From a virus (Duplodnaviria; Heunggongvirae; Uroviricota; Caudoviricetes): DNA of 46,724 nt. A program made the translations under genes and the position numbers. Each line of letters begins with the position of its first letter. The stretch's first letter is position 1. The DNA lies in the IMG/VR virus record IMGVR_UViG_2579778634_000020; one strand, 5' to 3'. Under the pieces are notes generated by a model. It had not been told where the DNA came from and searched no databases. It saw nothing but the letters and a program-made list of their open reading frames with translations. Positions 3,954 through 37,731 of this stretch are shown here, in pieces.

Positions 3954-6900
3954 TCAGCTGATACTGATGCCTGCGGTGGCTTTCTTCATCACCACAACCA
4001 GCAAATCGCTGATACTTGCTGTGGGATACCAGTCATTTACCAGCCATGCTGACACCGAAAACTCCAGCGTCGTGTGACCGTGACCGGCAGGCATATCAAT
4101 AACGCCACTGTAAATCAGCGTATTATCCAGCGCGGTACGGTTATAAATTTCAGCACCGTTTTTCCGCACTATCAGACGGCATGAGGAGTAAATATCAGTA
4201 TGCTCTCTCTCATGTTTAGCGCCGCTGAATGCCACCGCCGGAATAACAATCTGCCGGTCAAACGGCTGATCGTCATAAATCCTGACGGTAATGGTCCCTG
4301 ATGGCCACCGCTCCGGTGCCCGGGAGTCCCGCGGGAAAGCCTTACCCACTGTTTTGACAATATCGCCTTCAATCTGGTTGGCTGACAGTTTCCCTTTAAT
4401 CTGACAGTTCTCATTTATCGTAACGTTGTTGAGCGTCCCGGCGTTCGCATTCACACTGCCACTGATATCCGCATTTTTAGCGGTCAGCTTTCCGTCCGGT
4501 GTCAGGGAAAAGGCCGGAGGATTGCCGCCGCTGGTAATGGTGGGGGCCGTCAGGCGCTTCAGGAACACTTCATTCATGAATATCTGATCACCCTGACCAA
4601 CAAACATCGGTTTTGTGTTGCCATTCGCAGGATTAATCATCGCAATCCTGTCTGCCGCCAGCAGCACCTGACTCTGCATGCCGTCAGGGGTGTTCTCAAT
4701 ACCGGCACCAATACCCGCGATATAAAGGCGTCCGTCCTGCATCTGCTGCAGCTTCACAGCCCACATGCTGTTCAGGTTATTATTTGTATCAACCTGAACC
4801 TTCTGTATCTGCTGAATTGCAGCACTCTGGTCTTCCAGTTTCTTATTGACGGTCTGCGTGATTTCATTGCTGACATCCGTAATGGACGTCCTGATTTCAG
4901 CCAGGTCAGGCGCAAGCTGACCGTTATCAATCTGCGTCCACAGCTCCTGAGCCAGATGGGTTTTCCCTATCTCGCCTTTGAAAAAATCCAGATAACCGGA
5001 TGCATCATCACTCGGCTGACCAACAGCCTCCACGAATGCCGATTTGCCAACGGTGTTCACACTGCGGATATAAAAGTAATAATCATGGCCCGGTTTGATA
5101 TTGATACTGGCGGCTATCCAGTACAGCGCCGTACCAAGATAGCGTGCTGTGGTTTCAACCTGCCTGATATCCGCAATCCGCTTTTCCGAGAACCAGAACT
5201 CAAACTGTACCGTCGGATCATAAACCGCAAGATGCGGCGTGGCGGTTATCTGAAAATAGCCCGGTGTCAGCTCAATCCGAGACGGCGCTGCCGGTGCGGC
5301 AATCCGGAACGATACCGATGCCGGATCGCCCTGCTGTCCCCACGCATTTACCGCCCGGACTGTCAGCCTGTAGTTCCCCAGCGCCAGTTGCGTGAAGCGG
5401 TATGTAGTTTCCGTCGTCCGGGCCGTGCTGACCAGCCGCTCACTGCCGTCATCCGCTGCCACGGTCAGGCGAAGCATAAAGCTCACCCCCTTCACCACCT
5501 TCGGCGTGTCCCAGCGCGCCAGCACCTGATATTCCCCGCTGTCTGCGGTGACTTCGGCAGTCAGGTGCTGCACCGCTGGCGGCGTGACACCATTCACCGT
5601 GCCGCTCTGGTCGCCGTCAAAGTGCGCCCCGTTATCCACGATGGCCTCTTTTTCCGGCACATGCTGCACGGCGGTGATGGCATACGTGCCGTCGTCGTTC
5701 TCACGGATACTCACGCAGCGAAACAGTCGCTGGCGCAGCGTCGGCAGCTTCAGCCCCCATACGCTGTATTCAGCAACACCGTCAGGAACACGGCTCACTT
5801 TTACCTTCACGCCGTCGGTGGCGGACTGGACCTCCACGCTGACCGGATTGCCATTTCCGTCAACCAGGCTTATCAGCGTGGTACCGGAGGATGGCAGCGT
5901 GATTTCACGGTCGAGCGTCAGCGTCCGGGTCTGGCTGTTCACCGCCAGCACGCGCCCACCGGTGCTGATACCCGCATAGTCATCATCACAGATTTCAATG
6001 ACATCGCCCGGCACATGGCGAAGCCCTTCTGCGCCCACGCTGAAGTCCACGGTCTGCGTTTCCAGCAGTTCTGTTTTAATCAGCCACAGCCCGGCGCGGT
6101 GTGCCTGCCCCCGGCTGGTACAGCCAAAGGCATCCATCTTCGTGACATTACGACCATAACGGGCAATGGCCTGCGTATCTTCAACAAGCTCTGTCGCCGT
6201 CTCCCAGCCGTTGTCCGGGTCAATCCAGTTCACCTCAACGGCATTATGGCGGACCTTCAGGGCGCTGAAACTGTAGCGGAACGGCGCGCCATCATCCGGC
6301 ATCACCACATTACTGCGGTTATAGGTCCACACCTTATCCGACGGCCGGTCCTGCACGAACGTCAGCGTCTGCCCGTTCCATACCGGCATACAGCGCATCG
6401 CCGAGCAGAAATCACTGAGCACATCCCACGCCTTACGCTGTGTGGTCAGCCAGGCATTACAGGTGATGCGCGGCTCCGTGCCGCCAAAGCCGTCCGGCAC
6501 CGACTGGTCGCAGTACTGGCCGATGACATACAGCGCCCATTTATCCACATCCGCCGCACCAAGACGTTTCCCCATGCCGTAGCGCGGGTGGGTCAGCATA
6601 TCCCACAGACACCATGCCATGTTGTTGCTGTATGCTGGCTTAAACGTTCCGTCCCAGATACCGCTGTATTGCCGCGTCTGCGGGTTATAGTTCGACGGCA
6701 CCTGCAGAATGCGCCCGCGAAGATGATAATTACGGCTCACCTGCTGGCTGCCGAACTGCTCCGAGTCCACCTGTACGCCGACCAGTGCCGTGTTCGGGTA
6801 GCACTGTTTCACATCGATGATTTCGGTGTATGACGACCAGAGCGTTTTGTTCTGCAGCTGGTCTGTGGTGCTGTCCGGCGTCATCCTGCGCATCCGGATG

Positions 6901-7433
6901 TTGAACGGGCGCGGCGGCAGGTTACCCACCACCACCGAGGCCAGATACTGCGAGGTGGTTTTGCCCTTAATGGTGATGTCTTTTTCCGTCACCCAGCCAC
7001 CGTTACGTTGTATCTGAACCAGCAGGCGGACTTCCGACGGATTCCGGTCCCCCTTTGAGGTGGTTTCCACCAGTGCCTGCACACCGAAGGTAAAGCGCAG
7101 TCGGTCGATGTTTGCCGACGTGATGGCGCGGGTGATCGGCGTGTCGTATTTCACTTCCGTACCCAGCACCGTCTCGGAGCCGGAGGATTCAAATCCCTCC
7201 GGCGGAGTCTGCTCCTGCTCACCAGCCCGGAACACCACCGTGACACCGGCGATGTTGGTATTCCCCTCACTGTCCAGCACCGGCGTACTGTTCAGCAGCA
7301 CGCTTTTTAATCCATCCACCGGACCTTCAATCGGCCCTTCACTGATGGCATCAATCACACTCAGCAACTGCGTGGATTTCAGGTTGTCCTTCGCTTCACG
7401 CGGGGTATGCCCCTTACTGCTGCCTTTACCCAT
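3954..7433 (-). CDS. J: Tail tip / central fibre host-specificity protein J
   Basis: 1159 aa, collinear with and similar to lambda J over the N-terminal and central parts (…[45 protein letters not shown]…). Sits downstream of I-K-L-M in the lambda order. Confidence 0.95.
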
Positions 7434-25702: not shown

Positions 25703-25734
25703 AAAACGCACCCCAGCAGCCAGTGCTACTGGGG
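25703..25734 (-). terminator. Rho-independent terminator downstream of trkG
   Basis: Minus strand CCCCAGTAG-CACTGG-CTGCTGGGG (one G-U pair) followed by TGCGTTTTATT. Confidence 0.55.
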
Positions 25735-25820
25735 ACGGAGGTATTGCTGGTAAAGTTAGGTATTGGATCAATGAGTGAGTCAACATAATATTAAACTCAC
25801 AATTATAAATCAGCCATATA

Positions 25821-27278
25821 TTAGGAGCGCCAAAAAAAACCTGAAAACAATATAATAACAGGATAAATTTCAAGGCGACCAAGAATCATAGCTATGCACA
25901 TTAAACATTTTGCAATGTCATTAAGCACTCCGAATGACGATGCAGTAGCCCCAAAACCTAATCCCATATTATTAATACATGCAGCCACTGTTGCAAATGA
26001 TGTAAGAAAATCATATCCCATACCATTTAACACCAGTATAAAAAACACCGTGAAGAGAGTATAAAGAAAAAAGAAACTCCATACAGACCTCATTACACGA
26101 TCTGTAACTATCTTCCCTCCTACATTTACACTCAACAACGCTCTGGGATGAGAAAGCTGATTTATCTCGTGTTTGCTTTGTTTGAAAAGTATAAGAAATC
26201 GAAGTGACTTAATTCCACCACAAGTTGAACCTATACATCCCCCAAAGAAACTTGACAACAGCAAAAACACTATCGTGTGCGTGGGCCAACTTGCATAATC
26301 CTGCGTAGCTAAACCATTATCAGTGAGCATGGAGCTGGCAAGAAAAAACGAATGAATAAAACTTCCATGCAAGTCATACATACCTATATGCCAGACCTGG
26401 AAAGAGGTAACAATGATCACCCCTAAGGCTATTAACAGAAAGAAACGAAGTTCAATATCTCTGATTAAAGGTTTTATCGTTTTCCTGCTAATAACAATAT
26501 ACCAAAGAGTGAAGTTGAAAGCCGATAGCAGGGAAAAAGAACCAGCCACCAGCTCAACCAAATAGTTATTAAAATATCCGATACTCTCGCTATGAGTTGA
26601 GAAACCACCAAGCGAAACTGTGGAAATCCCGTGACAAATAGCATCAAACAAAGGCATTCCTGCAAGTCTATAACAGACAATACAAGCAATACCTAATAAA
26701 GAATAAGTTATCCACAGTGTCCGTGACGTATCGGCCAGGCGGGGAGTGAGTTTGTCATCCTTAAATGGCCCCGGCATTTCTGACTGATAAAGCTTTGCAC
26801 CACCAATACCCAATAATGGCAATACAGCAACCGCCAGAACAATAACTCCTAAACCACCTATAAAATTTAACTGTGACCGATAGTACAAATATGCCCGAGG
26901 TAATGAACTAACATCATCAATTACAGTTGCTCCTGTTGTTGTTATTCCAGAAACCCCTTCAAACAGAGCATCAATGAACGTTAAATTAAGTTCTGAGTCA
27001 ATCCATAAAGGGAATGCACTAATAACAGAAAACAAAATCCAAAACATTACAATTATAATAAACCCATCACGGGTACGTAATTGAATGCCAGATTTCTTAG
27101 TTGTATACCACGCTCCGCCACCAATGCAAAAAAATATAACGAAAGTTATAAAGAAAACGAACAGGCTTTTTTCTTTATAAAACAATGCTACAACCATTGG
27201 TGGCAACATTGAAAGACTATAGAGCCAAACCAGGAACCCACACATATGAGTAACAACTCTTACATGAGATGTATTCAT
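25821..27278 (-). CDS. trkG: Trk-system potassium uptake protein TrkG, prophage cargo
   Basis: Translation from the ATG at 27278 (MNTSHVRVVTHMCGFLVWLYSLSMLPPMVVALFYKEK…) matches Rac-encoded TrkG as I recall it. Multi-pass membrane protein. Noticeably AT-rich codon usage, own AT-rich upstream region and own terminator. Confidence 0.9.
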   Translation of the reverse strand: MNTSHVRVVTHMCGFLVWLYSLSMLPPMVVALFYKEKSLFVFFITFVIFFCIGGGAWYTTKKSGIQLRTRDGFIIIVMFWILFSVISAFPLWIDSELNLTFIDALFEGVSGITTTGATVIDDVSSLPRAYLYYRSQLNFIGGLGVIVLAVAVLPLLGIGGAKLYQSEMPGPFKDDKLTPRLADTSRTLWITYSLLGIACIVCYRLAGMPLFDAICHGISTVSLGGFSTHSESIGYFNNYLVELVAGSFSLLSAFNFTLWYIVISRKTIKPLIRDIELRFFLLIALGVIIVTSFQVWHIGMYDLHGSFIHSFFLASSMLTDNGLATQDYASWPTHTIVFLLLSSFFGGCIGSTCGGIKSLRFLILFKQSKHEINQLSHPRALLSVNVGGKIVTDRVMRSVWSFFFLYTLFTVFFILVLNGMGYDFLTSFATVAACINNMGLGFGATASSFGVLNDIAKCLMCIAMILGRLEIYPVIILFSGFFWRS

Positions 27279-27415
27279 ATCTAAATATTCTTTCAATTAT
27301 AACCACCTTGCTGCAATATTATGATTATACTGTATAAAATTTAACTCCTCTTAGATCTTACTTCACTGTTCCTTATGAAACAATCATCAAAATGAATCAT
27401 ATTGTAGTTAAGATT

Positions 27416-27880
27416 TTACTTTAAACACTGCTCGGTTATGTATTGCTGAGCACCTTCAAGTTGGGCCTGCATCATTACCAGTCGTTCCCGCAGGGTGAAA
27501 TAATCCCGTTCAGCGGTGTCTGCCAGTCGGGGGGAGGCTGCATTATCCACGCCGGAGGCGGTGGTGGCTTCACGCACTGACTGACAGACTGCTTTGATGT
27601 GCAACCGACGACGACCAGCGGCAACATCATCACGCAGAGCATCATTTTCAGCTTTCGCATCAGCTAACTCCTTCGTGTATTTTGCATCGAGCGCAGCAAC
27701 ATCACGCTGACGCATCTGCATGTCAGTAATTGCCGCGTTCGCCAGCTTCAGTTCTCTGGCATTTTTGTCGCGCTGTTCTTTGTAGGCGATGGCGTTATCA
27801 CGGTAATGATTAACACCCCATGACAGGCAGACGACGATGCAGATAACCAGAGCGGAGATAATCGCGGTTACTCTGCTCAT
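27416..27880 (-). CDS. Rz: Rz i-spanin
   Basis: 154 aa, N-terminal TM anchor then coiled coil; start overlaps the endolysin stop as ATGA; Rz1 embedded in the +1 frame. Confidence 0.9.
27475..27660 (-). CDS. Rz1: Rz1 o-spanin (outer-membrane lipoprotein)
   Basis: 61 aa entirely inside Rz in another frame. Lipobox LVVVGC, proline-rich ([19 protein letters not shown]). Confidence 0.85.
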
Positions 27881-28353
27881 ACCTCAATCTCTCTGACCGT
27901 TCCGCCAGCTTCTTTGAATTTTGCAATCAGACTGTCAGCCTTATGCTCGAACTGACCATAACCAGCGCCCGGCAGTGAAGCCCATATATTGCTGCAACGG
28001 TCGATAGCCTGACGGATATCACCGCGATCAATCATCGGCAAAGCGCCACGCTCTTTAATCTGCTGCAGCGCTACAGCATCCTGACTTTCTGGAGAAAAAT
28101 CTTTCAGGCCAAGTTGCTTGCGGTAGGCATCCCACCAGCGTGAAAGAAGCTGGTAACGTCCAGCGGCTGTTGATTTGAGTTTCGGATTTAGCGTGACAAG
28201 TTTGCGGGGGTGATCGGAGTAATCAGTGAACAGTTCGCCACCGACAATAACATCATAACCGTGATTTCTGGTTTTCTGCCGTCCGTTATCTGTTCCTTCT
28301 GACCATGCCACCATATCAAGGAAAGCTTTACGCTGGGAATTAAGTGTCTGCAT
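27877..28353 (-). CDS. R: Endolysin (lambda R-type lytic transglycosylase)
   Basis: 158 aa; N-terminal region [39 protein letters not shown]…YSDHPR is R-like from memory, including the catalytic Glu in WSEGT. Lies between the holin and Rz. Confidence 0.9.
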
Positions 28354-28356
28354 TAA

Positions 28357-28707
28357 TTACTCCTTATGGGCACCGAACTTGTTACCGATGACCCTCATTG
28401 CCGCACCACGAATAGCATCAACACCAATCAGCCCCACCCCACCACCAATGGCAACAGAAAGTGATTTAGGCCATCCGACATACTCAAGCGCGGATGCAAA
28501 GGTCAGCGTCAGAGCACCACAAAGCAGAATCTCAAGCGTTTTTCGTTTCCAGCCGCCGCCACCGCCAAAATAGGCAATGCGCAAACCAGCCATAATAATT
28601 GACATAACCACTGCACCCAGCGGCGTATCTCCACGCCACCAACTTTGTAAGAGTTCCAGTAAGTCAGGCCAGGAATGAGGGGCATTGTGCATTTTCATAA
28701 GCCTCAC
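28357..28707 (-). CDS. S: Holin with a dual-start motif (possible holin/antiholin pair)
   Basis: 116-aa ORF beginning MRLMKMH…, with hydrophobic segments and a charged C-terminus. Three in-frame Met codons at positions 1, 4 and 6, analogous to lambda S107/S105. Confidence 0.75.
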   Translation of the reverse strand: MRLMKMHNAPHSWPDLLELLQSWWRGDTPLGAVVMSIIMAGLRIAYFGGGGGWKRKTLEILLCGALTLTFASALEYVGWPKSLSVAIGGGVGLIGVDAIRGAAMRVIGNKFGAHKE

Positions 28708-28792
28708 CTCCGAGAGTTCGGATGGTGCTAAGTGTAAGATTCAGGCTCTCAGGCTTGCTAACAAGAAGTCGAGGATGTTTCCGGAGCCTAAC

Positions 28793-28821
28793 AACGAAAA
28801 AGCCCCGGGACATGCCGGGGC
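28793..28821 (-). terminator. tR'-like terminator upstream of the holin gene
   Basis: Minus strand GCCCCGG-CATGTC-CCGGGGC followed by TTTTTCGT, about 85 nt before the holin start. Confidence 0.5.
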
Positions 28822-28915
28822 CAGATGGAGTGCCAGATTAAGCTTCTGGCGGTATATACTCGTGTTTGATATCGTTAAATCGCCAAAAGTAACAATTCAA
28901 ACAAAGAGGATTTTT

Positions 28916-29077
28916 ATGTCTGAAAAAAACAAACCACAAGGTGAAAATAAACCTCAGCACCCCGTGGCACCAAAACCAACTCCAACACAAAGTACTACAG
29001 ACTTTGCTACACGTCGTGTTTTTGTTGGAGATTCTGCCGACTCAGTCATTGAACATATAAAAAAACAGCCGAGATAA
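28916..29077 (+). CDS. Small plus-strand ORF (53 aa), antisense to the late operon
   Basis: ATG at 28916 preceded by AAAGAGGA, 5 nt before the ATG. Encodes MSEKNKPQGENKPQHPVAPKPTPTQSTTDFATRRVFVGDSADSVIEHIKKQPR. Overlaps the 3' end of the minus-strand membrane-protein gene by 32 nt. Confidence 0.3.
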   Translation: MSEKNKPQGENKPQHPVAPKPTPTQSTTDFATRRVFVGDSADSVIEHIKKQPR

Positions 29078-29615
29078 ACATCGCCGCTACCGGAGCAAGG
29101 ATGGTATACATCCTTGCTTTATCGAGACTCGTGCGGATTTTCTCATTTTCCAACAGTAACTCTCTTGCTGTATCACTCAAGTCAACAAGGCGATACCTTC
29201 GTATAAGCGGCAATAACTTATCAGGTCCTAAATATCCTGCATCAGCGAATATTTTAAAGCTCGAGGGCTCCATATCCTTATATTTTTCATGATATAGATG
29301 ATCAGGAGGGGCATTGATCAGGCCCCTAACCTTCACAGATAAACCAGTACATACCAAGTAAATGGCGCACCATGTCCATAGTAATGTAAATGTGGTAATT
29401 CCGGCGGTGAGAAAATCGAAATTAGTTTTCTGTGTCAGCAATAAAAAAGATGAACCAATTCCAACAATCTGAATGTTCAGAAGTTTGTATCCATTCTCAA
29501 CATTGGTTTTGTTAGAAAGATGAATCTCTCGTATCGTCTCTTCCCCTTGTTTTTCAAGATAATCGACGAGCTCATCATCTACTCCTAAAAAATAATCTTT
29601 AGGTAGTTCTCTCAT
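29046..29615 (-). CDS. Membrane protein of unknown function, cargo gene between Q and the holin
   Basis: 189 aa with about three predicted TM segments (…LLNIQIVGIGSSFLLLTQ…, …LTAGITTFTLLWTWCAIYLVCTG…, …MYTILAPVAAMFISAVFLYVQ). Visibly AT-rich. Bracketed by terminator-like hairpins. Confidence 0.6.
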   Translation of the reverse strand: MRELPKDYFLGVDDELVDYLEKQGEETIREIHLSNKTNVENGYKLLNIQIVGIGSSFLLLTQKTNFDFLTAGITTFTLLWTWCAIYLVCTGLSVKVRGLINAPPDHLYHEKYKDMEPSSFKIFADAGYLGPDKLLPLIRRYRLVDLSDTARELLLENEKIRTSLDKARMYTILAPVAAMFISAVFLYVQ

Positions 29616-29721
29616 CTCACCTCCACATCCTGTACTGAAAACAATTTTACCAGAATGTCTCGATTCTAGGTATTCCGCCAGGAATCGCGCTCCAGAAATG
29701 AAACATCAGGTTCGCCAGTAC

Positions 29722-29758
29722 CAGAAACAACAAAACCCGCTCAATGGCGGGTTCTGGT
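29722..29758 (-). terminator. Terminator-like hairpin about 80 nt downstream of the Q-like gene
   Basis: Minus strand AACCCGCC-ATTGA-GCGGGTT followed by TTGTTGTTTCTGG; an outer CCAGAA/TTCTGG pairing extends the structure. Confidence 0.5.
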
Positions 29759-29836
29759 AAAGTTCATGCGCTTGGTTCGCCTCGCGATACAGCTTTGCGA
29801 AGCATACCGGAATTGAAGCAGTTTATGCGTAAAAAA

Positions 29837-30379
29837 TCAAGCTATTTTTTGAGCAAATGATTCTCGCATGGGAATATATAGGGCATACTCAGCAACAGCC
29901 AACCAATTAGCAATTCGCTTTTCGCATGTGCTAAAACACCACTCAGGATGTGCATCATTTAGCAATTCAGCCATTTTGCGCTTAGTCATCCCCCGTCCTT
30001 CATACCGTTGCCGGAGGACACTAATCAATCCAGGATGCTCTGCCAGCACCTCACTTATGACTCTATCAATACATAACGCCTCTGCATCAGTACAATGCGC
30101 CAGCCAGGTCTTTTGCTTGCCATTGATCATCTCTCGCAAAAACGCTTCCAGCTCAGGTTTCTCTATTCCCGCTTTTTTCATCCTGCGCAGGGCTTCATTG
30201 ACGGCTGTTTTCGTCAATTTTTTGGATGCCAGCAACTGGTTAAACATATTTCCCGTCTTACCGCCGCCAATATACGACCAGCGCCCCCACATGCGCAGTT
30301 TTCCCTGAATCCAGACACTTTCCAGCGTGGTGAGACGAAGGTGTTCCCCGCTTTTGCCTGTATTTGTTGGGTAAATCAT
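29837..30379 (-). CDS. Putative late antiterminator (Q-like)
   Basis: About 180 aa from the ATG at 30379, which overlaps the upstream gene stop as ATGA. Last gene before the terminator, cargo gene and lysis cassette. Positional call; the sequence is not lambda Q-like. Confidence 0.6.
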   Translation of the reverse strand: MIYPTNTGKSGEHLRLTTLESVWIQGKLRMWGRWSYIGGGKTGNMFNQLLASKKLTKTAVNEALRRMKKAGIEKPELEAFLREMINGKQKTWLAHCTDAEALCIDRVISEVLAEHPGLISVLRQRYEGRGMTKRKMAELLNDAHPEWCFSTCEKRIANWLAVAEYALYIPMRESFAQKIA

Positions 30380-30666
30380 AAATAACCTTCCTTTCTCCAG
30401 ATTTCTTGTGTGCGAAAAACACCTTCTGCATGCATCAGGCGTAATTCTTCTTTGGTGTAATCGCTGGTTTTTACCCGCCCGTCGATTAAATCGTGGCATG
30501 AGCTACAGGCAATCGCTGCCTGCATATCGTGTGGTTTTGTCGCTGTTCCGCACGTCCCCGCCAGCCTGTAATGCGCCAGCACAGATGTTTCGGGATTGTG
30601 ATTGCAGTAGCCAGGAATTCTGACGGTGCACATCTGCCCCCGCGCCGCTTTACGTAAATCCACCAT
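30376..30666 (-). CDS. YbcO-like (DUF1364) putative nuclease
   Basis: 96 aa: MVDLRKAARGQMCTVRIPGYCNHNPETSVLAHYRLAGTCGTATKPHDMQAAIACSSCHD…, closely resembling DLP12 YbcO as I recall it, with four conserved Cys. Translationally coupled to both neighbours. Confidence 0.7.
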   Translation of the reverse strand: MVDLRKAARGQMCTVRIPGYCNHNPETSVLAHYRLAGTCGTATKPHDMQAAIACSSCHDLIDGRVKTSDYTKEELRLMHAEGVFRTQEIWRKEGYL

Positions 30667-31265
30667 TACGCAAACTCCAGCAGCTGCGCGGCCACATTTT
30701 CGACTTGTTCCGGAGAGGAAAATTTACGGAACAGAATCCAGTTCCACAGCACATTCAGAACAGATTTATAAACCTGCTGAAACTCGGTTTCGTCCATATT
30801 CGCAAAAGCGATAGATTTTGCCCGACGCCCGCGGCTACCGTCCTGATAAAAATGTTCGGTGTAAAATCCAGCCTGAATGGTTACCCACTCGCGAAAAGCC
30901 TCAAACGACTTTAGCAATGCCGTATCCCGGGTTCTGCGTGTCGCAACTGTATTCAGATATTGCTCTGCGGCATCACTCAGGGCTGGCGTGTGTTCCCGAC
31001 CAACTGATTCGCACAGGTAATCAACGAAACCAGACAGCAGTTCTCGTTCGCGAGGCGTGATCGCCCCACCGACCGGAGTCCAGTAATCGAATCCCAGTTG
31101 CAGGAGTTTGAAAAAACGCTTGTGGAATGCGTAGTTACGCACACGCTTAAAGTCTGCGTGTATCCACTCGCCTATTTTGATTTGATGCAGAAAATCACAA
31201 CTCTCCGGCGTCGCCGGGAGAAGTAATCCGGAAGAGGTTTGTTTGACCAGTTGTATATGCGCCAT
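30666..31265 (-). CDS. DUF1367-like protein (YbcN/YdaW family)
   Basis: 199-aa ORF directly upstream of the YbcO-like gene, at the position of ydaW in K-12 Rac. Family call from synteny and recalled similarity. Confidence 0.6.
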   Translation of the reverse strand: MAHIQLVKQTSSGLLLPATPESCDFLHQIKIGEWIHADFKRVRNYAFHKRFFKLLQLGFDYWTPVGGAITPRERELLSGFVDYLCESVGREHTPALSDAAEQYLNTVATRRTRDTALLKSFEAFREWVTIQAGFYTEHFYQDGSRGRRAKSIAFANMDETEFQQVYKSVLNVLWNWILFRKFSSPEQVENVAAQLLEFA

Positions 31266-31537
31266 TTCTTAATCTCTCGATGGCGCAGCGCAGCAGATGC
31301 CAGTTGTTCAGGCTGACGTATGAAGTATAAATAAACTGGCTCCAGTGTAAAGCCCCACCTTAATGGAATAAAAACCAAACAACAGATTGCTGGGATACAA
31401 ACAACGCTTATTATTAAAAGCGGTTAAACAAATTAAATTTTAATGTTATGCAAATCTGCCAGATCACCATAATATCTCATTTGAAAACCGCTGAAATAAC
31501 AACCCTATTAGGGTTAATCATATTAAGGTGAGTAAAT

Positions 31538-31624
31538 ATGGAAAACAACAAATCTGCACATTACGTTCCTTTTTTATCTGTAATACTTTTTGTTTTATGC
31601 TGTGCGTGGGCATTATTTTTATAA
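31538..31624 (+). CDS. Candidate small hydrophobic peptide (28 aa)
   Basis: ATG at 31538 preceded by AAGGTGAG; encodes MENNKSAHYVPFLSVILFVLCCAWALFL, a polar head then a single hydrophobic helix. Convergent with hok. Confidence 0.3.
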   Translation: MENNKSAHYVPFLSVILFVLCCAWALFL

Positions 31625-31730
31625 AAATATTCACAGATAAAATATACCCGCCAAAGTTGGTTAAGTGCGGGTGCGTTGAGGATGCCTGACTCATCAGAGG
31701 TGGCGAGGGATTTCTCCCTCGCCTGGTCTC

Positions 31731-31883
31731 TCACTCCTCAGGTTCGTAAGCTGTGAAGACAGCGACCTCCGTCTGACCGGTTCGGATTTGTACCTCGCAG
31801 AAGTCTTTCCTTGTTACCAGTGCCATCACAACGACGGTAATACAGATGACAATCAGGGCGGTTAACATCGTCTTTTGCTGCAT
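31731..31883 (-). CDS. hok: Hok/Gef-family type I toxin (HokD/RelF-like)
   Basis: Minus-strand translation MQQKTMLTALIVICITVVVMALVTRKDFCEVQIRTGQTEVAVFTAYEPEE (50 aa), near-identical over most positions to E. coli HokD/RelF as I recall it (MKQQKAMLIALIVICLTVIVTALVTRKDLCEVRIRTGQTEVAVFTAYEPEE). A 9-bp perfect hairpin (31701-31722) follows the stop. Confidence 0.85.
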   Translation of the reverse strand: MQQKTMLTALIVICITVVVMALVTRKDFCEVQIRTGQTEVAVFTAYEPEE

Positions 31884-31897
31884 CACAGCCTACTTAC

Positions 31898-31932
31898 CCT
31901 TACCTTTCGTTCAAGCGGTAAGGTCACTTTTT
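31898..31932 (+). terminator. Plus-strand hairpin plus T-run antisense to the hok 5' region (candidate Sok-like RNA terminator)
   Basis: CCTTACC (31898-31904), 12-nt loop, GGTAAGG (31917-31923), then TCACTTTTT. It lies just upstream of the hok start codon on the opposite strand. No convincing promoter was identified. Confidence 0.3.
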
Positions 31933-32031
31933 CTGTTGTGTGCTAACCAACAAACCTCTTTTATCTGCATTAAAAATCGTTATCATGTCATCCTCAACCT
32001 GTTAATAGCCTATTATGGACTTTAGTAAACA

Positions 32032-33861
32032 ATGAGCACTTCCGCATACAAGAGCAAAATTCGAACACTCCAGTGCGCGTTAAAAAACGGTGAATTTGAA
32101 CCATTCATACAACATATCCGTTTTCCATACTTTAAAAATATAGAGCAGAATGCAAGGATCGATTTTCAGTTCCCTATAACGGCTTTAGTAGGAAAAAATG
32201 GAACTAATAAAAGTTCTGTTATCAAAGCGCTATTTGGTTGCCCACATGGTAAAAATATAACTCGTTATTGGTTCACAACTGAAACAGATGAGTTTCCTGA
32301 CCTAAAACTTGCTGATGGCAGTTCTCTTAAACCTAGATATATATATGGATATAAAAATGCTGATGGCCGTTTAGTTGAAATACTCCAAGCACGTATCAAT
32401 GCTACCAAGAAAACAATCGATTATTGGGAAACAAGTCGACCATCTGTTGGTGATAACATGGAGAGTATTTCGGATGATCTGGGTGCTAATAGTAATGCAA
32501 CCAGATGGAAAAAAATCAAGAAGGGATTGGTTTTCCTAGATTTCAGATCGGAAATAAGTGCATTTGATAGATGTATGTATCACTCTGATTTTAAATTAAG
32601 AAAGAAGAAGAGTGGTGTATTAATTACAAAGCAAGACTATATCAGAAGCAAATCTAAATATATAAAGAAAGCTTTTGATGAAAAGCTAAGTAATTTAAGA
32701 CTCTGGGGGGCGGAAACCATTGTTAAAAATATAACCTTGGCGCCAGAACTAGTTGAGCACGTCTCATTTATATTAGGGAAAAAATATAAAGTCATTAAAT
32801 TTCTTGAGCATCGGTTATTTGGAACCAGAGGAGGAACCGCTTTACTTTCAACTGATAAGTTGAACTATACAGAAGCGTTTGCTGGAAGTGGTGAATTTGC
32901 AATAGTTTCACTAATACTCAATATTTATTCGGCCAAACCTAATTCATTAATTCTTCTTGACGAACCAGAAGTTTCACTTCACCCTGGTGCACAAAAAAGG
33001 ATGATGGATGTTCTGTACTCTATTGTTGAGCAGAAAAAACATCAAGTGGTAATATCAACCCATTCTCCTGTTATTGTGAACACTCTTCCCAAAGATGCCA
33101 TTAAATTATTTGTTTTTGATGAAGAGAGTGAAACAGCTAAAATAGTTCAAAATATAGCACCGGATGAAGCTTTTATAGAGCTAGGGCATGATATTAACAA
33201 GAAAACAATAATTGTAGAAGATAAATTAGCTAAAGCAATTATAGATAAAGCGATTAAAAATGATGAAAGATTAAGCTTATCATTTAGTGTAAGTTATATA
33301 CCAGGTGGTTCGGAGACCATTTTAAGCAAGCATCTTCCCAGTTACGCTGTGGTAGAACGCAATGATATTTTGTTTTTACTTGATGGTGATAAAAACAAAA
33401 AAATAAAACCAGTAAGAATTAGTGAAATTGCTGATGCTGATTTAGTTAATACAATGTGCAAATATTATGGTTGCGAGTTAATTATCAATGCCAGTGGTAG
33501 TAATGGCAAAAAAAATGAACAAGAATCTAATAGACTCAAAAGGCAAGTGCTTGAGTATGCATTCAATAAAGTGCAGTATTTACCATTTGATACTCCCGAA
33601 CAATTACTCATTGAAAAGGCAATTACGCCAAGTGAAAAAGAAATAATTGATTCACAGACCTGGAGTTCTAATGATCCAGAACTGTATAAGAATCAAATAA
33701 GATTATTAGCGCAACACCTGTATGATAAAGAAGAAGTAAATGCAGAGGAAATTTTTTGCCTCCAACAAATGATGACCGCAAGACTTAAAAATGAATTGCC
33801 TGAATTTATAAAAATAAGAAAAATAATTACTCAGGCTCTTGACCGTGGTATCATTAGGTAG
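32032..33861 (+). CDS. OLD-family-like nuclease candidate: ABC-type ATPase with a C-terminal TOPRIM-like region
   Basis: 609 aa. P-loop variant LVGKNGTNKSSV (54-62), Walker B and D-loop LILLDEPEVSLHP, H-loop VVISTHSP; C-terminal TIIVEDKLAKAII … ILFLLDGDKNKK gives a conserved Glu and a DxD about 55 residues apart as in TOPRIM. Architecture and size resemble P2 Old / GajA-like proteins. Visibly AT-rich gene. Confidence 0.7.
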   Translation: MSTSAYKSKIRTLQCALKNGEFEPFIQHIRFPYFKNIEQNARIDFQFPITALVGKNGTNKSSVIKALFGCPHGKNITRYWFTTETDEFPDLKLADGSSLKPRYIYGYKNADGRLVEILQARINATKKTIDYWETSRPSVGDNMESISDDLGANSNATRWKKIKKGLVFLDFRSEISAFDRCMYHSDFKLRKKKSGVLITKQDYIRSKSKYIKKAFDEKLSNLRLWGAETIVKNITLAPELVEHVSFILGKKYKVIKFLEHRLFGTRGGTALLSTDKLNYTEAFAGSGEFAIVSLILNIYSAKPNSLILLDEPEVSLHPGAQKRMMDVLYSIVEQKKHQVVISTHSPVIVNTLPKDAIKLFVFDEESETAKIVQNIAPDEAFIELGHDINKKTIIVEDKLAKAIIDKAIKNDERLSLSFSVSYIPGGSETILSKHLPSYAVVERNDILFLLDGDKNKKIKPVRISEIADADLVNTMCKYYGCELIINASGSNGKKNEQESNRLKRQVLEYAFNKVQYLPFDTPEQLLIEKAITPSEKEIIDSQTWSSNDPELYKNQIRLLAQHLYDKEEVNAEEIFCLQQMMTARLKNELPEFIKIRKIITQALDRGIIR

Positions 33862-33884
33862 TGATTCTGGATGCAGAGGGAAAA

Positions 33885-34925
33885 ATGAAAAAAATCAAAG
33901 TGTTTGACTTCTTTTCCGGTTGTGGTGGAACCAGCCAAGGTTTCCATCAAGCTGGAATGGATATTGTTTTTGGCCTCGATTTCGACGTTGATGCAGCCAG
34001 TTCATTTCGTGCAAATTTCCCGCAGGCTGCTTTTATTAACTCGGACATTAGGTTAATCGACAACAATGCCATAAACAAGTTAGTAAAAAAACATCGTAAT
34101 GATTACATTCTTTTTTCAGGATGTGCGCCTTGTCAACCGTACTCTAAGCAAAACTCAAATAAGAAAAATGATGATCCACGATTAGATCTATTAAAGGAAT
34201 TCAGTCGCTTTGTAGAGCATTATATGCCTGATTTTATTTTTGTTGAAAACGTGCCAGGAATGCAAAAGTTTAACAAAAATGAAGGAACATTCATGATGTT
34301 TTTAGAAATGCTTTCATCAAAGGGATATAGTGTAGATTATAAAGTAATGCCAGCTGCGTGGTACGGTGTACCACAGACGCGAGAAAGATTAGTGCTCATT
34401 GCATCCAAGGATTTTTATGTCGCATTGCCTTCTCCTACACATGGGGTTGGAAATACTCCCTATTCAACAGTAAAGGACTGGATCGCTAATTTACCGAAGA
34501 TAGAAGCAGGAGAAAAGCATAATAGTATTCCTGATCATGAAGCTGCACGCTTATCAGAGCTTAATTTACGTAGAATAAAATGCACTCCTGAAGGTGGAAG
34601 TCGAGAATTTTGGCCAGATGAATTGATTTTAGAATGCCATCGTAACCATAAAGGGCATACAGACGTATATGGACGTTTGAGTTGGGACAAACCAGCCAGC
34701 GGACTAACAACTCGTTGTATTAGCTATTCAAATGGACGTTTTGGACATCCAACACAAAATCGAGCAATATCGGTTCGTGAAGCAGCGTGTCTACAAACAT
34801 TTCCTTTGGATTATAAATTTATTGGTTCTTTGCAATCTCGGGCTCGTCAAATAGGAAATGCGGTCCCTCCGAAGATGTCTGAAACGATTGGAAAACATTT
34901 GCTTAATATAATCAAAGCCTCCTAG
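33885..34925 (+). CDS. DNA (cytosine-5)-methyltransferase
   Basis: Motif I FDFFSGCGGTSQGF, motif IV GCAPCQPYS (catalytic PC), motif VI ENV, motif VIII QTRER, motif X GNAVPP. ATG at 33885 with RBS AGAGGG; an in-frame GTG at 33861 overlaps the upstream TAG. Confidence 0.9.
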   Translation: MKKIKVFDFFSGCGGTSQGFHQAGMDIVFGLDFDVDAASSFRANFPQAAFINSDIRLIDNNAINKLVKKHRNDYILFSGCAPCQPYSKQNSNKKNDDPRLDLLKEFSRFVEHYMPDFIFVENVPGMQKFNKNEGTFMMFLEMLSSKGYSVDYKVMPAAWYGVPQTRERLVLIASKDFYVALPSPTHGVGNTPYSTVKDWIANLPKIEAGEKHNSIPDHEAARLSELNLRRIKCTPEGGSREFWPDELILECHRNHKGHTDVYGRLSWDKPASGLTTRCISYSNGRFGHPTQNRAISVREAACLQTFPLDYKFIGSLQSRARQIGNAVPPKMSETIGKHLLNIIKAS

Positions 34926-34938
34926 GAGGCTTTATTTT
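34914..34938. terminator. Palindromic terminator between the convergent MTase and early-right genes
   Basis: AAAGCCTCC-TA-GGAGGCTTT palindrome at 34914-34933 containing the MTase TAG stop, followed by TTTATTTTATT. Also hairpin-forming on the minus strand, with a weaker T-tract. Confidence 0.55.
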
Positions 34939-34958
34939 ATTGTTATCCCCCCTAGTAG

Positions 34959-35390
34959 TTAATCGTGCTCACCAGACAACCTCCTGAAATTACTCTGGTA
35001 AAATGCCAGTACACGCTGCATAACTTCGCTTTTCCGGCACTCGCGACAGATTATATTCAGGCGCCTGTCGTAGCGGCGTATTTCTCCGTCTGGTAATGAC
35101 CAGATAAGGTCAGGATCAACCACAACCGTTTTTTTCACCTTTGCCCTGGATAGTTTTTTGCGGGCGTTTTGCCAGTCCTTACGAGCCTGCTCAGACGGGA
35201 ATAATCCGTAGCCTGAATTGTAAACATCACCACTGGCGACCAGTTCTCTGGCGAGAGTGCTTATGTAATACCTTGATGCACCGGTTTTAGCCTCCAGAGC
35301 CCGTAACGTCTCGCGACCGCTCAGACGTACAAGTTCAACAACCTGCCCTTTAATTTTTTCCCGCTCTTCTGGTGTAAATACTTTTGCCAT
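34959..35390 (-). CDS. Hypothetical protein (143 aa)
   Basis: ATG at 35390 preceded by RBS GGAGG. Basic protein with a Cys pair (ICRECRK). No family recognised. Confidence 0.55.
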   Translation of the reverse strand: MAKVFTPEEREKIKGQVVELVRLSGRETLRALEAKTGASRYYISTLARELVASGDVYNSGYGLFPSEQARKDWQNARKKLSRAKVKKTVVVDPDLIWSLPDGEIRRYDRRLNIICRECRKSEVMQRVLAFYQSNFRRLSGEHD

Positions 35391-35405
35391 AGGTGCCTCC
35401 GGCAA

Positions 35406-36167
35406 TCACTTTTCCGACACAATACGACTGGAGGAATCGAAAATCTGTCGAACAATATCCCGGTGCTTGTTCAGCTCCCGCAGCGCGGCGCAGACTCGCT
35501 CCCACTTCTGGACATGATTTTTCGCCCGACGCAGTTCACGGTTTGCCATATGCAGCGATGGTAAAATCAGGTTATCCGCTTGCGTTTCAGTAAACGATGG
35601 CAACGACTGCACAATGTCCGCCACAGTTTCTGTTTTAATATCTTCCTGTGTTGCAGCTTCCTGTACTGGTAACGCAACACCGGCTAGCTGAGGAAAGGCT
35701 TTACCATCTGTTTCCGCTACCGATGCAGCTTTCGGCTCTGCTGGTAAATTACCGCCCGGCATGCAGTAACGAAATTTACCGTTCTGATTAACGCGAATCA
35801 GACGAGCTTTGCTGATTGCCATTGCCAGCGTTGAAGCCACTTTGCGGGATGTGGTACCGAACACCGTAGCCAGTTCATCCGCAGTTAGTGGACCACGTTG
35901 TTCAATCGTCGCAGTTAAATCGCTCTCTGAAATTTTCGCGACTGTTGCCGTGGTAGTTTCTTCCGGCAGTTCTGCCGGCGCTGGCTGTTCCTGCTGAACG
36001 TTGTTATCAGCCACACGCCAGGTGTACGCGCTTTTATCAACGAAACCAGCCTTTTTCAGTTCCCATAGTTCGTTCAGCACTTCTTCACGGCTGATATCAA
36101 GTCGCGCAGCAAGTTCTATGGATGTGGCTTTTCCCATTGCTTTCAGTGCGTCAAAAACAGTCTCCAT
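35406..36167 (-). CDS. Hypothetical DNA-binding protein with two winged-helix-like segments
   Basis: Likely start is the ATG at 36167 ([43 protein letters not shown]…); a second similar segment is [31 protein letters not shown]. Immediately downstream of the DnaC-like gene. Confidence 0.55.
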
Positions 36168-36189
36168 TAAATTTTTCTCCCGGTAAAAA

Positions 36190-36936
36190 TTACTTCGCAA
36201 TTCCTGGCTGGACGACATTCGGACGCCAGCTCTCCCAGTTAAAATTCACCCATCGCCCGCCGTTCATGGTCATGCGATCCATAATCCTCTCGCCGAGCAA
36301 TGTTTTCATGGCCTCATAATTCAGGTTTGTCAGCATCCCCACGCTGCGCATCGACGCTGTCCGGCGATCAACAATCTGGTGCAGCACCACCTGCTCGTTT
36401 TTTGTCTCGCGCTGAATGCCAATTTCATCAAGAACCAGCAGATCCACTTGGCACAGTTCCCGCAAAAATTTTTCGCCTGATTGCCCGTCGTCATAGCTGG
36501 CGTGTAGGGCACTCATGACATCAGCCACGGTAACCACAATCACTGTCTGGCCATCTTTCAGCAGGCGATTCCCGATAGCTGCCGCTAAGTGGTTCTTCCC
36601 GGTACCAGGTTTTCCGCTGAACGCAAAATTTGTACACCCGGTCATCAGTTCATCAGCGATGGATTTCGCCTGACTCAACGCGTATCGCTGCCCTTCGTTC
36701 TGCACCTGGTAATTCGAAAACGAGCATTTGCGGTGCAATGGCTGGATGCCAGAGCGATTCAGAATTTTTTCCACCCGCAACTGACGATTCTGACGGTTGA
36801 TCTCCTCACAACGTTTCTGGCCTTCGGAAAGTTGCCACTCGCGCCACTCCGCTACCGTCTTGAATGGCGCGGTTACATGCGACGGGGCCAGTCTGCGGAT
36901 ACGTTCAAGAACGTCGCCTGTCGCAATATTTTTCAT
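36190..36936 (-). CDS. ydaV: DnaC-like helicase loader / replication protein (lambda P functional analogue, IstB-like ATPase)
   Basis: 248 aa; Walker [18 protein letters not shown], Walker B LLVLDEIG. Downstream of the O-like gene. Symbol by synteny with K-12 Rac. Confidence 0.85.
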
Positions 36937-36942
36937 GGTCAG

Positions 36943-37731
36943 TTACCCCCTGAAGCCTGGCGGGATCGCACTATCCGGTAACGAGACGGTGTTAACCTGT
37001 CGGAGTAACGTCTCAGGTCGAACACCTTTCGGCGCGAACAAGCCCTGGTATTCGTTGGCGATGCTGTGTCGAATCACCTGCTCAGGTGAAAAACCCTGCT
37101 GGCGGAATTTTTCCAGCTCCCGTATCGCCCCGTTAGCGCCCTGCTCCGTTCGAATCGGTTTTCGCAATGCCTGCCTGAACTGAACCCACTCATGCCAGAG
37201 TGTTTCCGGCAACCAGTCAGGCAGCTCGATAGCCTCCGGTTCGAATTTTTTAGACGCTCGTTTTTGGCGAGGGGGATTTAGGGGGAGATAAGTATTTATA
37301 TCTTCCTCTTTCTCTTCCTCTGGTAACGCTTTTTGATCCGTTTTTGTAACGCTGGCAGCGTTACCTTTTCGTTTCAGTTCTCGTATTTTTGTTACTCTCT
37401 CGTTTGTAACCGCCCGTTTTTTAGAGCTTTTCCCGTTATGGCGCTCAAAGTTAGGAAGCGACAACACACCATTAGTTTCGACCAGCCATCCAACCTGAAT
37501 TAACGCATCAGCAAAACCAGCCATAAAAGTGATGCGATCTATTGCACTTTTTGTAACGCCGCGAGCGTTACACTCTGCGTTACCGTCTATCATTTGTTGA
37601 TCCGCCCATGCCCAGAAGCGAATGACTTTCCCTAATGCGGCATCTGGATCAATATTCAGAATCTCAGCAAGCCTGAATATTTCCGGCTTATCCGGCGTAA
37701 TAACTTCGAGCTTTATCCAGTTTGAAGCCAT
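36943..37731 (-). CDS. ydaU: Replication initiation protein (O-like, YdaU/DUF1376-like)
   Basis: 262 aa, upstream of the DnaC-like loader. Contains internal palindromic repeats and an acidic/AT-rich stretch. Symbol by synteny. Confidence 0.7.
   Translation of the reverse strand: MASNWIKLEVITPDKPEIFRLAEILNIDPDAALGKVIRFWAWADQQMIDGNAECNARGVTKSAIDRITFMAGFADALIQVGWLVETNGVLSLPNFERHNGKSSKKRAVTNERVTKIRELKRKGNAASVTKTDQKALPEEEKEEDINTYLPLNPPRQKRASKKFEPEAIELPDWLPETLWHEWVQFRQALRKPIRTEQGANGAIRELEKFRQQGFSPEQVIRHSIANEYQGLFAPKGVRPETLLRQVNTVSLPDSAIPPGFRG
37346..37364. promoter_or_regulatory. 19-bp inverted repeat GTAACGC-N5-GCGTTAC, copy 1 (inside the O-like gene)
   Basis: GTAACGC TGGCA GCGTTAC; a GGTAACGC half-site at 37322-37329 sits just upstream. 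Confidence 0.5.
37553..37571. promoter_or_regulatory. 19-bp inverted repeat GTAACGC-N5-GCGTTAC, copy 2 (inside the O-like gene)
   Basis: GTAACGC CGCGA GCGTTAC; a GCGTTACC half-site follows at about 37577-37584. Confidence 0.5.

Follow-up and report, generated by a model that had tools for sequence, protein, structure and literature searches.

A 46,724-nucleotide stretch of viral DNA (IMG/VR record IMGVR_UViG_2579778634_000020, referred to below as the window) carries an Escherichia coli Rac-like lambdoid prophage whose late operon lies on the minus strand, and the subject here is the interval between its Q-like late antiterminator gene and its holin gene. An earlier note on this DNA, made from the sequence alone, had pointed to the interval as a cargo slot in which a membrane protein is bracketed by two terminators and overlapped by a small antisense open reading frame (ORF). 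The interval is very probably a self-contained two-gene cargo module, made up of a gene for a 189 amino acid membrane protein and a small convergent gene of 53 codons, and the anatomy of this module is that of a moron. As far as its workings can be predicted, the module appears to work most like an effector of the PycTM or CBASS 2TM kind held under 3′-overlapping antisense control in the style of a type I toxin–antitoxin (TA) pair, the whole being packaged as a lambdoid moron.

The nature of the slot became clear from sister prophages. Two further Rac-like prophages (L098 and L099) have the same DUF1367–DUF1364–DUF1133 genes and a lysis cassette downstream, followed in one of them by trkG, and they hold genes for tRNA-Thr and tRNA-Gly in the interval between Q and the holin. 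The site is therefore a true variable cargo slot, as the earlier note had proposed. Alignments of the flanks place the ends of module conservation at ~29660 and ~28790, with the insert extending from about 29652 to 28791, and the GC content is 0.36–0.44 across the 189 amino acid ORF versus ~0.49–0.55 in the flanks. Of 5426 complete E. coli genomes, 223 contain the whole of a 1.2-kb query spanning the region, at an identity of at least 98.8%; strains FORC 064, B-1109 and FDAARGOS_497 carry the module and K-12 lacks it. A set of 95 loci with a full-length homologue of the 189 amino acid protein yielded 44 distinct protein variants, with identity down to 50%. The same pair of genes also lies between unrelated antiterminators (PF06530, PF03589 and Ogr_Delta) and unrelated holins in prophages of Serratia, Morganella and Pantoea, and the module accompanies at least two unrelated holin families. 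Since the terminators, the 189 amino acid ORF and the small ORF are all conserved in homologous loci, they are more than chance features.

The two terminator-like hairpins that had been reported are present and are the two strongest of the seven terminator-like sites in the region, where 3.3 ± 1.5 would be expected. They had been treated as rival candidates for tR′, the real one to be picked out by transcript data; comparison instead gives them different owners. The upstream terminator (29756–29721, minus strand) begins 81 nt past the stop of the Q-like gene (29837) and has a hairpin of 10 pairs, six of them GC (29756–29731), a tail TTGTTGTTTCT and a folding energy of −18.4 kcal/mol (z −3.4 against shuffles). 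Over just its first ~180 nt, which hold the 3′ end of Q and this hairpin, the 1.2-kb query matches 1645 of the 5426 complete E. coli genomes, most of them without the cargo. Because homology with the two sister prophages also stops just past the hairpin, it can be assigned to the Q backbone and is, to judge from these alignments, the tR′ of this DUF1133 type of Q. A pR′-like sigma-70 promoter, found by a consensus scan only (TTGGCT-18-TATATT, 29873–29902, minus strand), lies in the backbone as well, inside the 3′ end of the Q gene, and its position ~110 nt upstream of the first terminator would fit a late promoter.

The downstream terminator (28822–28791, minus strand) forms the right edge of the module, ~95 nt ahead of the holin ATG (28698). 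Its hairpin (28822–28801) has eight pairs, seven of them GC, in a stem GGCCCCGG-CATGTC-CCGGGGCT followed by a T run, with the tail TTTTCGTTGT. In a strict scan, a GC-rich hairpin with a T run stood at this place on the late strand in 23 of 41 distinct variants, as against two of the 41 on the opposite strand, and the stem sequences differ among these variants, which are drawn from many genera. This terminator thus belongs to the cargo and not to the backbone. Just upstream of it lies a second hairpin, here called hairpin A (GCCAGA-N7-TCTGGC, 28850–28832, minus strand), and the two fold together at −25.5 kcal/mol (z −2.8 against shuffles). Both sides of the hairpin A stem have changed in Morganella with the pairing kept (GCCAGT/ACTGGC), and in one further locus (L077), read by eye, there is G-U pairing only on the minus strand. 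An Rfam scan of 28300–30500 gave a chance match only (E 0.64).

Promoter-like elements precede both genes of the module. The putative promoter of the 189 amino acid gene, an extended −10 element TGGTAAAAT (29652–29644, minus strand), lies 28 nt before the ATG at the left module edge; TAAAAT is found 28–35 nt ahead of that ATG in 26 of 37 distinct upstream sequences (shuffles: mean 0.7, maximum 3), and upstream conservation begins only ~10 nt before it. For the small gene, the putative promoter is an extended −10 element TGATATCGT (28867–28875, plus strand) 40 nt before the ATG, and the block that holds it is the best-conserved non-coding stretch of the module. Here the motif TGnTAYnnT occurs 37–48 nt ahead of the small-gene ATG in 30 of 35 distinct sequences (shuffles: mean 0.5, maximum 4). 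Since the sequences are related by descent, these counts measure constraint and not independent events. A canonical −35/−10 candidate for the small-gene promoter, TTGATA-18-TAACAA, was set aside: its −10 is not conserved, and the pattern of conservation agrees better with TGATATCGT. The conserved leader is unstructured (z +1.1), so the idea of a structured RNA element ahead of the small ORF was dropped as well.

With conserved −10 elements for both genes, the module seems built for expression from the repressed prophage too. The earlier comparison with Q-dependent cargo such as stx therefore holds for the position in the late slot, but the dependence on Q is not so simple as it implied. Lambdoid phages carry cargo such as stx in 933W or tRNA genes in the slot between Q and S, and Hendrix-type morons such as HK97 gp15 are familiar. 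The present module is placed among morons by its low GC, its promoter-like elements and its own terminator, and it shares with those of the Q–S slot a place downstream of tR′ and replacement by other cargo in sister phages. It differs in having two convergent genes in place of one gene or one operon, and in a product that belongs to no known toxin, exclusion or virulence family.

Some loci hold the module in altered or partial form. In a group of human E. coli isolates (H71–H76) there is a 1-bp length difference and only one hypothetical protein is annotated; one of the two module genes may be frameshifted in this lineage. Other E. coli genomes (H92–H96) have the promoter block of the small gene, hairpin A and the terminator at 96–99% identity without the rest of the module (query positions 781–901, window ~28900–28780); these blocks may be remnants, or else the terminal part of a module variant that has diverged. 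Modules of the Citrobacter/Klebsiella type (L050–L055, 72–75% identity) are without the terminator hairpin and have a tRNA gene directly after them, so the module and tRNA cargo can share one slot. Two Serratia prophages (L004/L005) have an Ogr/Delta-type zinc-finger gene 60 nt upstream of the module and a further 74 amino acid ORF between the module and the holin (extra features at 5754–5939 and 6829–7053).

The small plus-strand ORF (28916–29077) had been described as 53 amino acids long, with a good ribosome-binding site and antisense to the 3′ end of the membrane protein gene. All of this is found, with AGAGGA 6 nt before the ATG and a 32-nt overlap, but the ORF is not incidental: it is the module's second gene and is conserved. 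All 44 distinct variants have it intact, and in them it starts 124–142 nt past the stop of the 189 amino acid gene and overlaps the 3′ end of that gene by 20–35 nt. The other frames at this locus are full of stops, and substitutions at codon positions 1, 2 and 3 number 11828, 9303 and 16573, so that the third position varies most. The protein is basic and Pro/Gln-rich, with the consensus MSxxNKP..KPQ..P.P..DFxxxRxFVGDSA(D/E)..KKxK, which has a Pro/Gln/Lys-rich middle and a Lys-rich end. A profile search with it found 83 protein clusters, typically of 47–53 amino acids and from the same genera as the 189 amino acid protein. By such measures of sequence conservation, the small ORF is to be counted a real gene. 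The RefSeq/PGAP annotation gives it 71 amino acids from 28862 (WP_224482377), a start upstream of the conserved −10-like motif. As the homologues are 47–53 amino acids long and the PGAP start precedes the motif, the ATG at 28916 is probably the true start.

The 189 amino acid ORF (29615–29046, minus strand) is AT-rich and has about three transmembrane (TM) segments, as first read. Kyte-Doolittle hydropathy gives two strongly hydrophobic segments (residues ~71–94 and 168–189), and the third membrane segment is a Gly/Ser-rich helix at ~46–62. An AlphaFold (AF2) model made from 41 homologues (mean predicted local distance difference test score, pLDDT, 81.8) is all-helical: a helix at 14–62 ends in the Gly/Ser-rich membrane segment, a membrane helix follows at 68–92, then a helical soluble part, and a last long helix at 134–188 ends in the third hydrophobic segment. 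Hydropathy and charge suggest that both soluble parts are cytosolic. The predicted layout is thus an acidic cytosolic N-terminal helix, a Gly/Ser-rich TM1, TM2, a cytosolic helical domain and a C-terminal TM3. The alignment of 41 family sequences has 25 invariant residues.

The earlier note found no recognisable family for this protein, and this stands in so far as Pfam, NCBIfam and PADLOC gave no match; both ORFs do, however, fall in PHROG families of unknown function (phrog_11870, E 6e-108, for the 189 amino acid protein and phrog_14506, E 8e-46, for the small one). Sequence and structure searches placed the 189 amino acid protein in no structural or lysis family of phages. There was no match to a holin family in Pfam, NCBIfam or PHROGs, and none to SieB (PF14163), Imm or another exclusion family. 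The best match from a profile search of PDB sequences was GpsB (E 0.097), judged to be noise, and Foldseek searches of the AF2 model returned generic BAR-like helical bundles from the PDB (best E 0.27) and, from BFVD, a best E of 0.46, both rejected as meaningless. The SLATT families were also considered, and no Pfam SLATT match was obtained in 78 family members at E ≤ 0.01. The family is small and narrow: when 1.84 billion representatives were searched exhaustively with its profile, 100 matches came out at E ≤ 1e-3, nearly all of 160–200 amino acids. A second, word-indexed homologue search mostly returned the close family again.

The one lead to function came from a distant member of the family. 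The same 78 members were scanned against PADLOC, and one of them, P0129, matched the PycTM model PDLC02364 (E 1.5e-8, profile positions 7–153 of 160) and the CBASS Effector-2TM model PDLC00700 (E 4e-5, positions 23–168 of 173); it also has a precomputed match to PF18967 (PycTM). P0129 belongs to the family over its full length (hhalign 99.4%, E 3e-21; HMMER E 1e-21). Two others, P0181 and P0197, match the same PycTM/2TM models more weakly (P0197 to PDLC00700, 2e-3), and the other PADLOC scans of distant members, two rounds before the P0129 match, were largely empty. By way of P0129, the 189 amino acid protein would be a distant, cyclase-less relative of PycTM and the CBASS 2TM effectors. In Pycsar the effector is PycTM, which is reported to disrupt the integrity of the membrane, cause abortive infection and kill cells (PMC11224242). 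Because P0129 matches PycTM and aligns with the 189 amino acid family, a membrane-disrupting, cell-killing action is plausible for the latter.

The likeness and the differences can both be stated. Like PycTM (PF18967; PDLC02364), the proteins of this family are small (~160–190 amino acids) and helical and lie in the membrane. Unlike PycTM, they are single prophage cargo with a third, C-terminal TM helix, have no adjacent PycC pyrimidine cyclase and are paired with a convergent small gene of a kind that Pycsar does not have. With the CBASS 2TM effectors, the family shares size, helical membrane architecture and the weak full-length profile matches of its distant members, but these matches come from distant members only and the module is without a CD-NTase or a nucleotide-sensing domain.

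Distant relatives also show where such genes can live. All of the ~20 inspected family loci are within prophages, at cargo sites. Distant relatives stand beside cI-like repressors, after the tape-measure gene and in a baseplate operon, and other family members lie among morons (SieB, HicAB, ParE) or, again, beside cI-like repressors. Since relatives occupy these other cargo sites, the function is not tied to lysis. Four of the distant relatives have similar Pro-rich basic peptides encoded antisense to their 3′ ends. P0129, beside a cI-like repressor, is overlapped over 30 nt by a 53 amino acid ORF (MSNQKSSQSKSPKSTKPAAP...KKNK) with a TTGTTA-17-TATAAT promoter; P0147, near a cI-like repressor, has an antisense ORF of 67 amino acids containing MSNEKQPDKPATTPTQ...FDSVDS; P0113, after the tape-measure gene, has the antisense ORF MNKQKEQQPSPKPVPRFVGNEQEKKK; and P0181, among SieB and HicAB, has one that begins MSTKKQEPRRTPPLRP.... 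Because relatives at other sites keep this arrangement, the convergent partner is ancestral to the family. In the phage with P0129 (L103, 6700–7005), the strong small-gene promoter is flanked by direct repeats GTTACCACAACTTATAA and GTAACCACAACTTATAA, and a 55 amino acid ribbon-helix-helix gene precedes it on the same strand, a hint that in this branch a repressor may control the small gene.

A role in lysogenic conversion or exclusion, as first proposed, remains the best guess, now with a homology lead to abortive-infection effectors of the PycTM type. In its fuller form, the best reading though a tentative one, a cyclase-less PycTM-like effector and its convergent restraint would make up a toxin/antidote-type exclusion or abortive-infection cargo. 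From the anatomy, conservation, cargo status and remote homology described above, we infer expression, toxicity, an antidote role and a trigger as follows. In the lysogen, both genes would be expressed from their own −10 promoters. The small-gene transcript would be fully complementary to the 3′ untranslated region (UTR) and the last 32 nt of the effector mRNA, and the basic small peptide may attach to the effector at its acidic cytosolic N-terminal helix; through the protein, the antisense RNA or both, the small gene would keep the effector low or inactive. The balance might be tipped to the effector when an infecting phage shuts off host expression, or when Q-modified polymerase from pR′ passes both tR′ and the terminator of the module and traverses the small-gene promoter. 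With the restraint lost, the effector would permeabilise the membrane, and the outcome would be protection of the abortive-infection or exclusion type, possibly with a part in the late membrane collapse at the prophage’s own lysis.

Several known systems come close to such a scheme. The pairs txpA/RatA and fst RNAI/RNAII are type I TA systems with 3′-overlapping convergent transcripts, and the module would share with them a membrane-active product whose mRNA is overlapped at the 3′ end by a convergent transcript with a putative promoter of its own. Here, however, the “toxin” has 189 amino acids where those pairs have a peptide of fewer than 60, and the antisense transcript encodes a conserved protein, so the module is not a type I TA and only the geometry of the 3′ overlap is common to both. 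Nor is it a type II TA, because its genes are convergent and have no Pfam or NCBIfam matches to known folds. Tai/Ati of phage phi80 is a prophage defence with late-expressed self-immunity in which Tai targets tail assembly (PMC11364771). Its logic, a cargo gene active in the lysogen and a balance between partners that Q-dependent late transcription flips, would be that inferred here; there is no sequence relation, though, and in the present module Q-dependent read-through would favour the effector and not the antidote. No account of the module came up in the literature when it was looked for by accession, by DUF name or by the name of the phage.

A number of observations weigh against the toxin/antidote reading. 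The PycTM and 2TM models, like the rest of Pfam and PADLOC, gave no match to the 189 amino acid protein of the window itself; in the current Pfam, P0129 reaches 16.1 bits with PF18967, short of the cut-off of 27.2; and TM-rich sequences are prone to biased profile matches. Structure searches of the PDB and BFVD gave nothing significant for the protein. No cyclase or CD-NTase lies near the ~20 inspected loci (the window, Serratia, Morganella, Pantoea, Pandoraea and metagenomic), and the known activation logic of PycTM, by way of cCMP or cUMP, therefore cannot apply; with no cyclase and no direct model match, the module is not a member of Pycsar or CBASS. Both −10-like motifs have poor −35 regions. 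The module genes are convergent, whereas two-protein TA pairs are normally co-transcribed, and the module stands directly ahead of the holin in 44 of 44 close variants, which also fits a lysis-related role. The strongest form of the reading would make of the module a new class of toxin/antidote defence carried by phages, built on a cyclase-independent PycTM-like pore former, controlled by a convergent peptide and antisense mRNA without a nucleotide signal and flipped by terminator-resistant late transcription or by the shut-off that an infecting phage imposes; in this form it is doubtful.

It is unlikely, but worth weighing first among the alternatives, that the protein excludes superinfecting phages without killing, by a block of DNA entry as with HK97 gp15 and P22 SieA, or that it changes the host envelope or ion balance, with the small protein as a regulator or co-factor. 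An inner-membrane protein in a moron with promoter-like and terminator signals of its own would suit this, as would the relatives in the immunity region, the site of lambda rex and of the sie genes of other phages. Yet no similarity to SieB (PF14163), Imm or the other exclusion families emerged, the sole homology lead is to killing effectors, and so tight and ancient a link with a partner encoded antisense is seen more typically where a toxic product has to be kept in check.

A lysis accessory is less likely still. The membrane protein would then be a late protein, an antiholin or holin helper, that tunes the triggering of the holin or depolarisation, while the small gene would damp leakage before induction. 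The constant place of the module, directly ahead of the holin and within the late transcript that depends on Q, agrees with this, as do the small size and multi-TM inner-membrane character of the protein and a very weak match of P0129 to Holin_BhlA (E 0.14). The absence of a holin or antiholin family match tells against it, and so do the terminator between module and holin, the sister prophages that manage with tRNAs in its stead, the two or more unrelated holin families found with the module, and the relatives beside cI, after the tape-measure gene and in a baseplate operon. Least likely of all is that the plus-strand ORF makes no functional protein and is an antisense RNA or 3′-UTR feature of the type I kind, or a by-product, for although its transcript would be antisense to the membrane protein mRNA at the 3′ UTR and 3′ end, in the geometry of txpA/RatA and fst RNAI/RNAII, and the N-terminal two thirds of the peptide are of low complexity and fast-evolving, the frame stays open in every variant amid frames full of stops, its third codon position is the most variable, the start codon, Shine-Dalgarno sequence, RxxVGDSA(D/E) and Lys-rich end are kept despite DNA divergence, and distant relatives keep the same type of peptide.

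The surroundings of the module are those of Rac. Window positions 25717–37197 and the Rac region of strain FORC 064 share 99.8% identity. On the minus strand, the genes for DUF1367 (NinB-like, 31265–30666) and DUF1364 (30666–30376) are followed by the Q-like DUF1133 antiterminator of the backbone (30379–29837; PF06576, E 3e-109), which also has a weak match to Phage_antitermQ and belongs to phrog_753, “anti-termination protein Q-like” (E 1e-79). Beyond the module come the backbone holin S of the lambda family (28698–28357; TIGR01594, E 5e-41; PF05106, E 2e-27), a GH24 endolysin (28353–27877), Rz with an embedded Rz1 (27880–27416) and trkG (27278–25821), the last of these set, as in Rac, between Rz and the packaging genes. 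The holin N-terminus reads Met-Lys-Met (28692–28698), a dual start of the kind from which lambda S yields both holin and antiholin. A full terminase-to-tail-fibre module (~800–25700, minus strand) is present here and not in K-12 Rac or in FORC 064, where sitABCD takes its place; it is 97–98% identical to that of Salmonella phage SPF_0923 and E. coli phage vB_EcoS-683R6. The prophage may thus be complete, and because these structural genes lie beyond it, the late transcript must cross the interval between Q and the holin.

Other possible cargo is carried by the same prophage. A separate sieB gene is found elsewhere in it. At 32032–34925 (plus strand) lie two genes oriented against the surrounding early and nin genes, first one for an AAA-ATPase/Toprim (OLD-like) nuclease and then one for a C5 cytosine methyltransferase. 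The nuclease matches the PADLOC models HEC-04 (E 2e-34), ATPase-Toprim, AriA, PtuA, GajA and Old, the methyltransferase matches type II methyltransferase models (E 1e-96), and the pair is probably a second defence cargo of the prophage. A gene for a type I toxin of the Hok/Gef family (51 amino acids, 31731–31886, minus strand) sits in an AT-rich gap flanked by this pair and the DUF1367 gene.

For annotation, the gain is a corrected start for the small gene and two terminators assigned, one to the backbone and one to the cargo. Were the toxin/antidote reading true, a membrane-acting defence or toxin/antidote module would have gone unrecognised in ~4% of complete E. coli genomes and in many prophages of Klebsiella, Citrobacter, Serratia, Yersinia, Proteus, Morganella and Pantoea. 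The convergent pair of protein and antisense transcript would join the known restraints on toxic membrane proteins, and the module would offer a clean case of Q antitermination switching a cargo module at induction. The PycTM/2TM effector superfamily would gain a form independent of signalling, in which effectors of the PycTM type have been uncoupled from second messengers and rewired as stand-alone prophage cargo.

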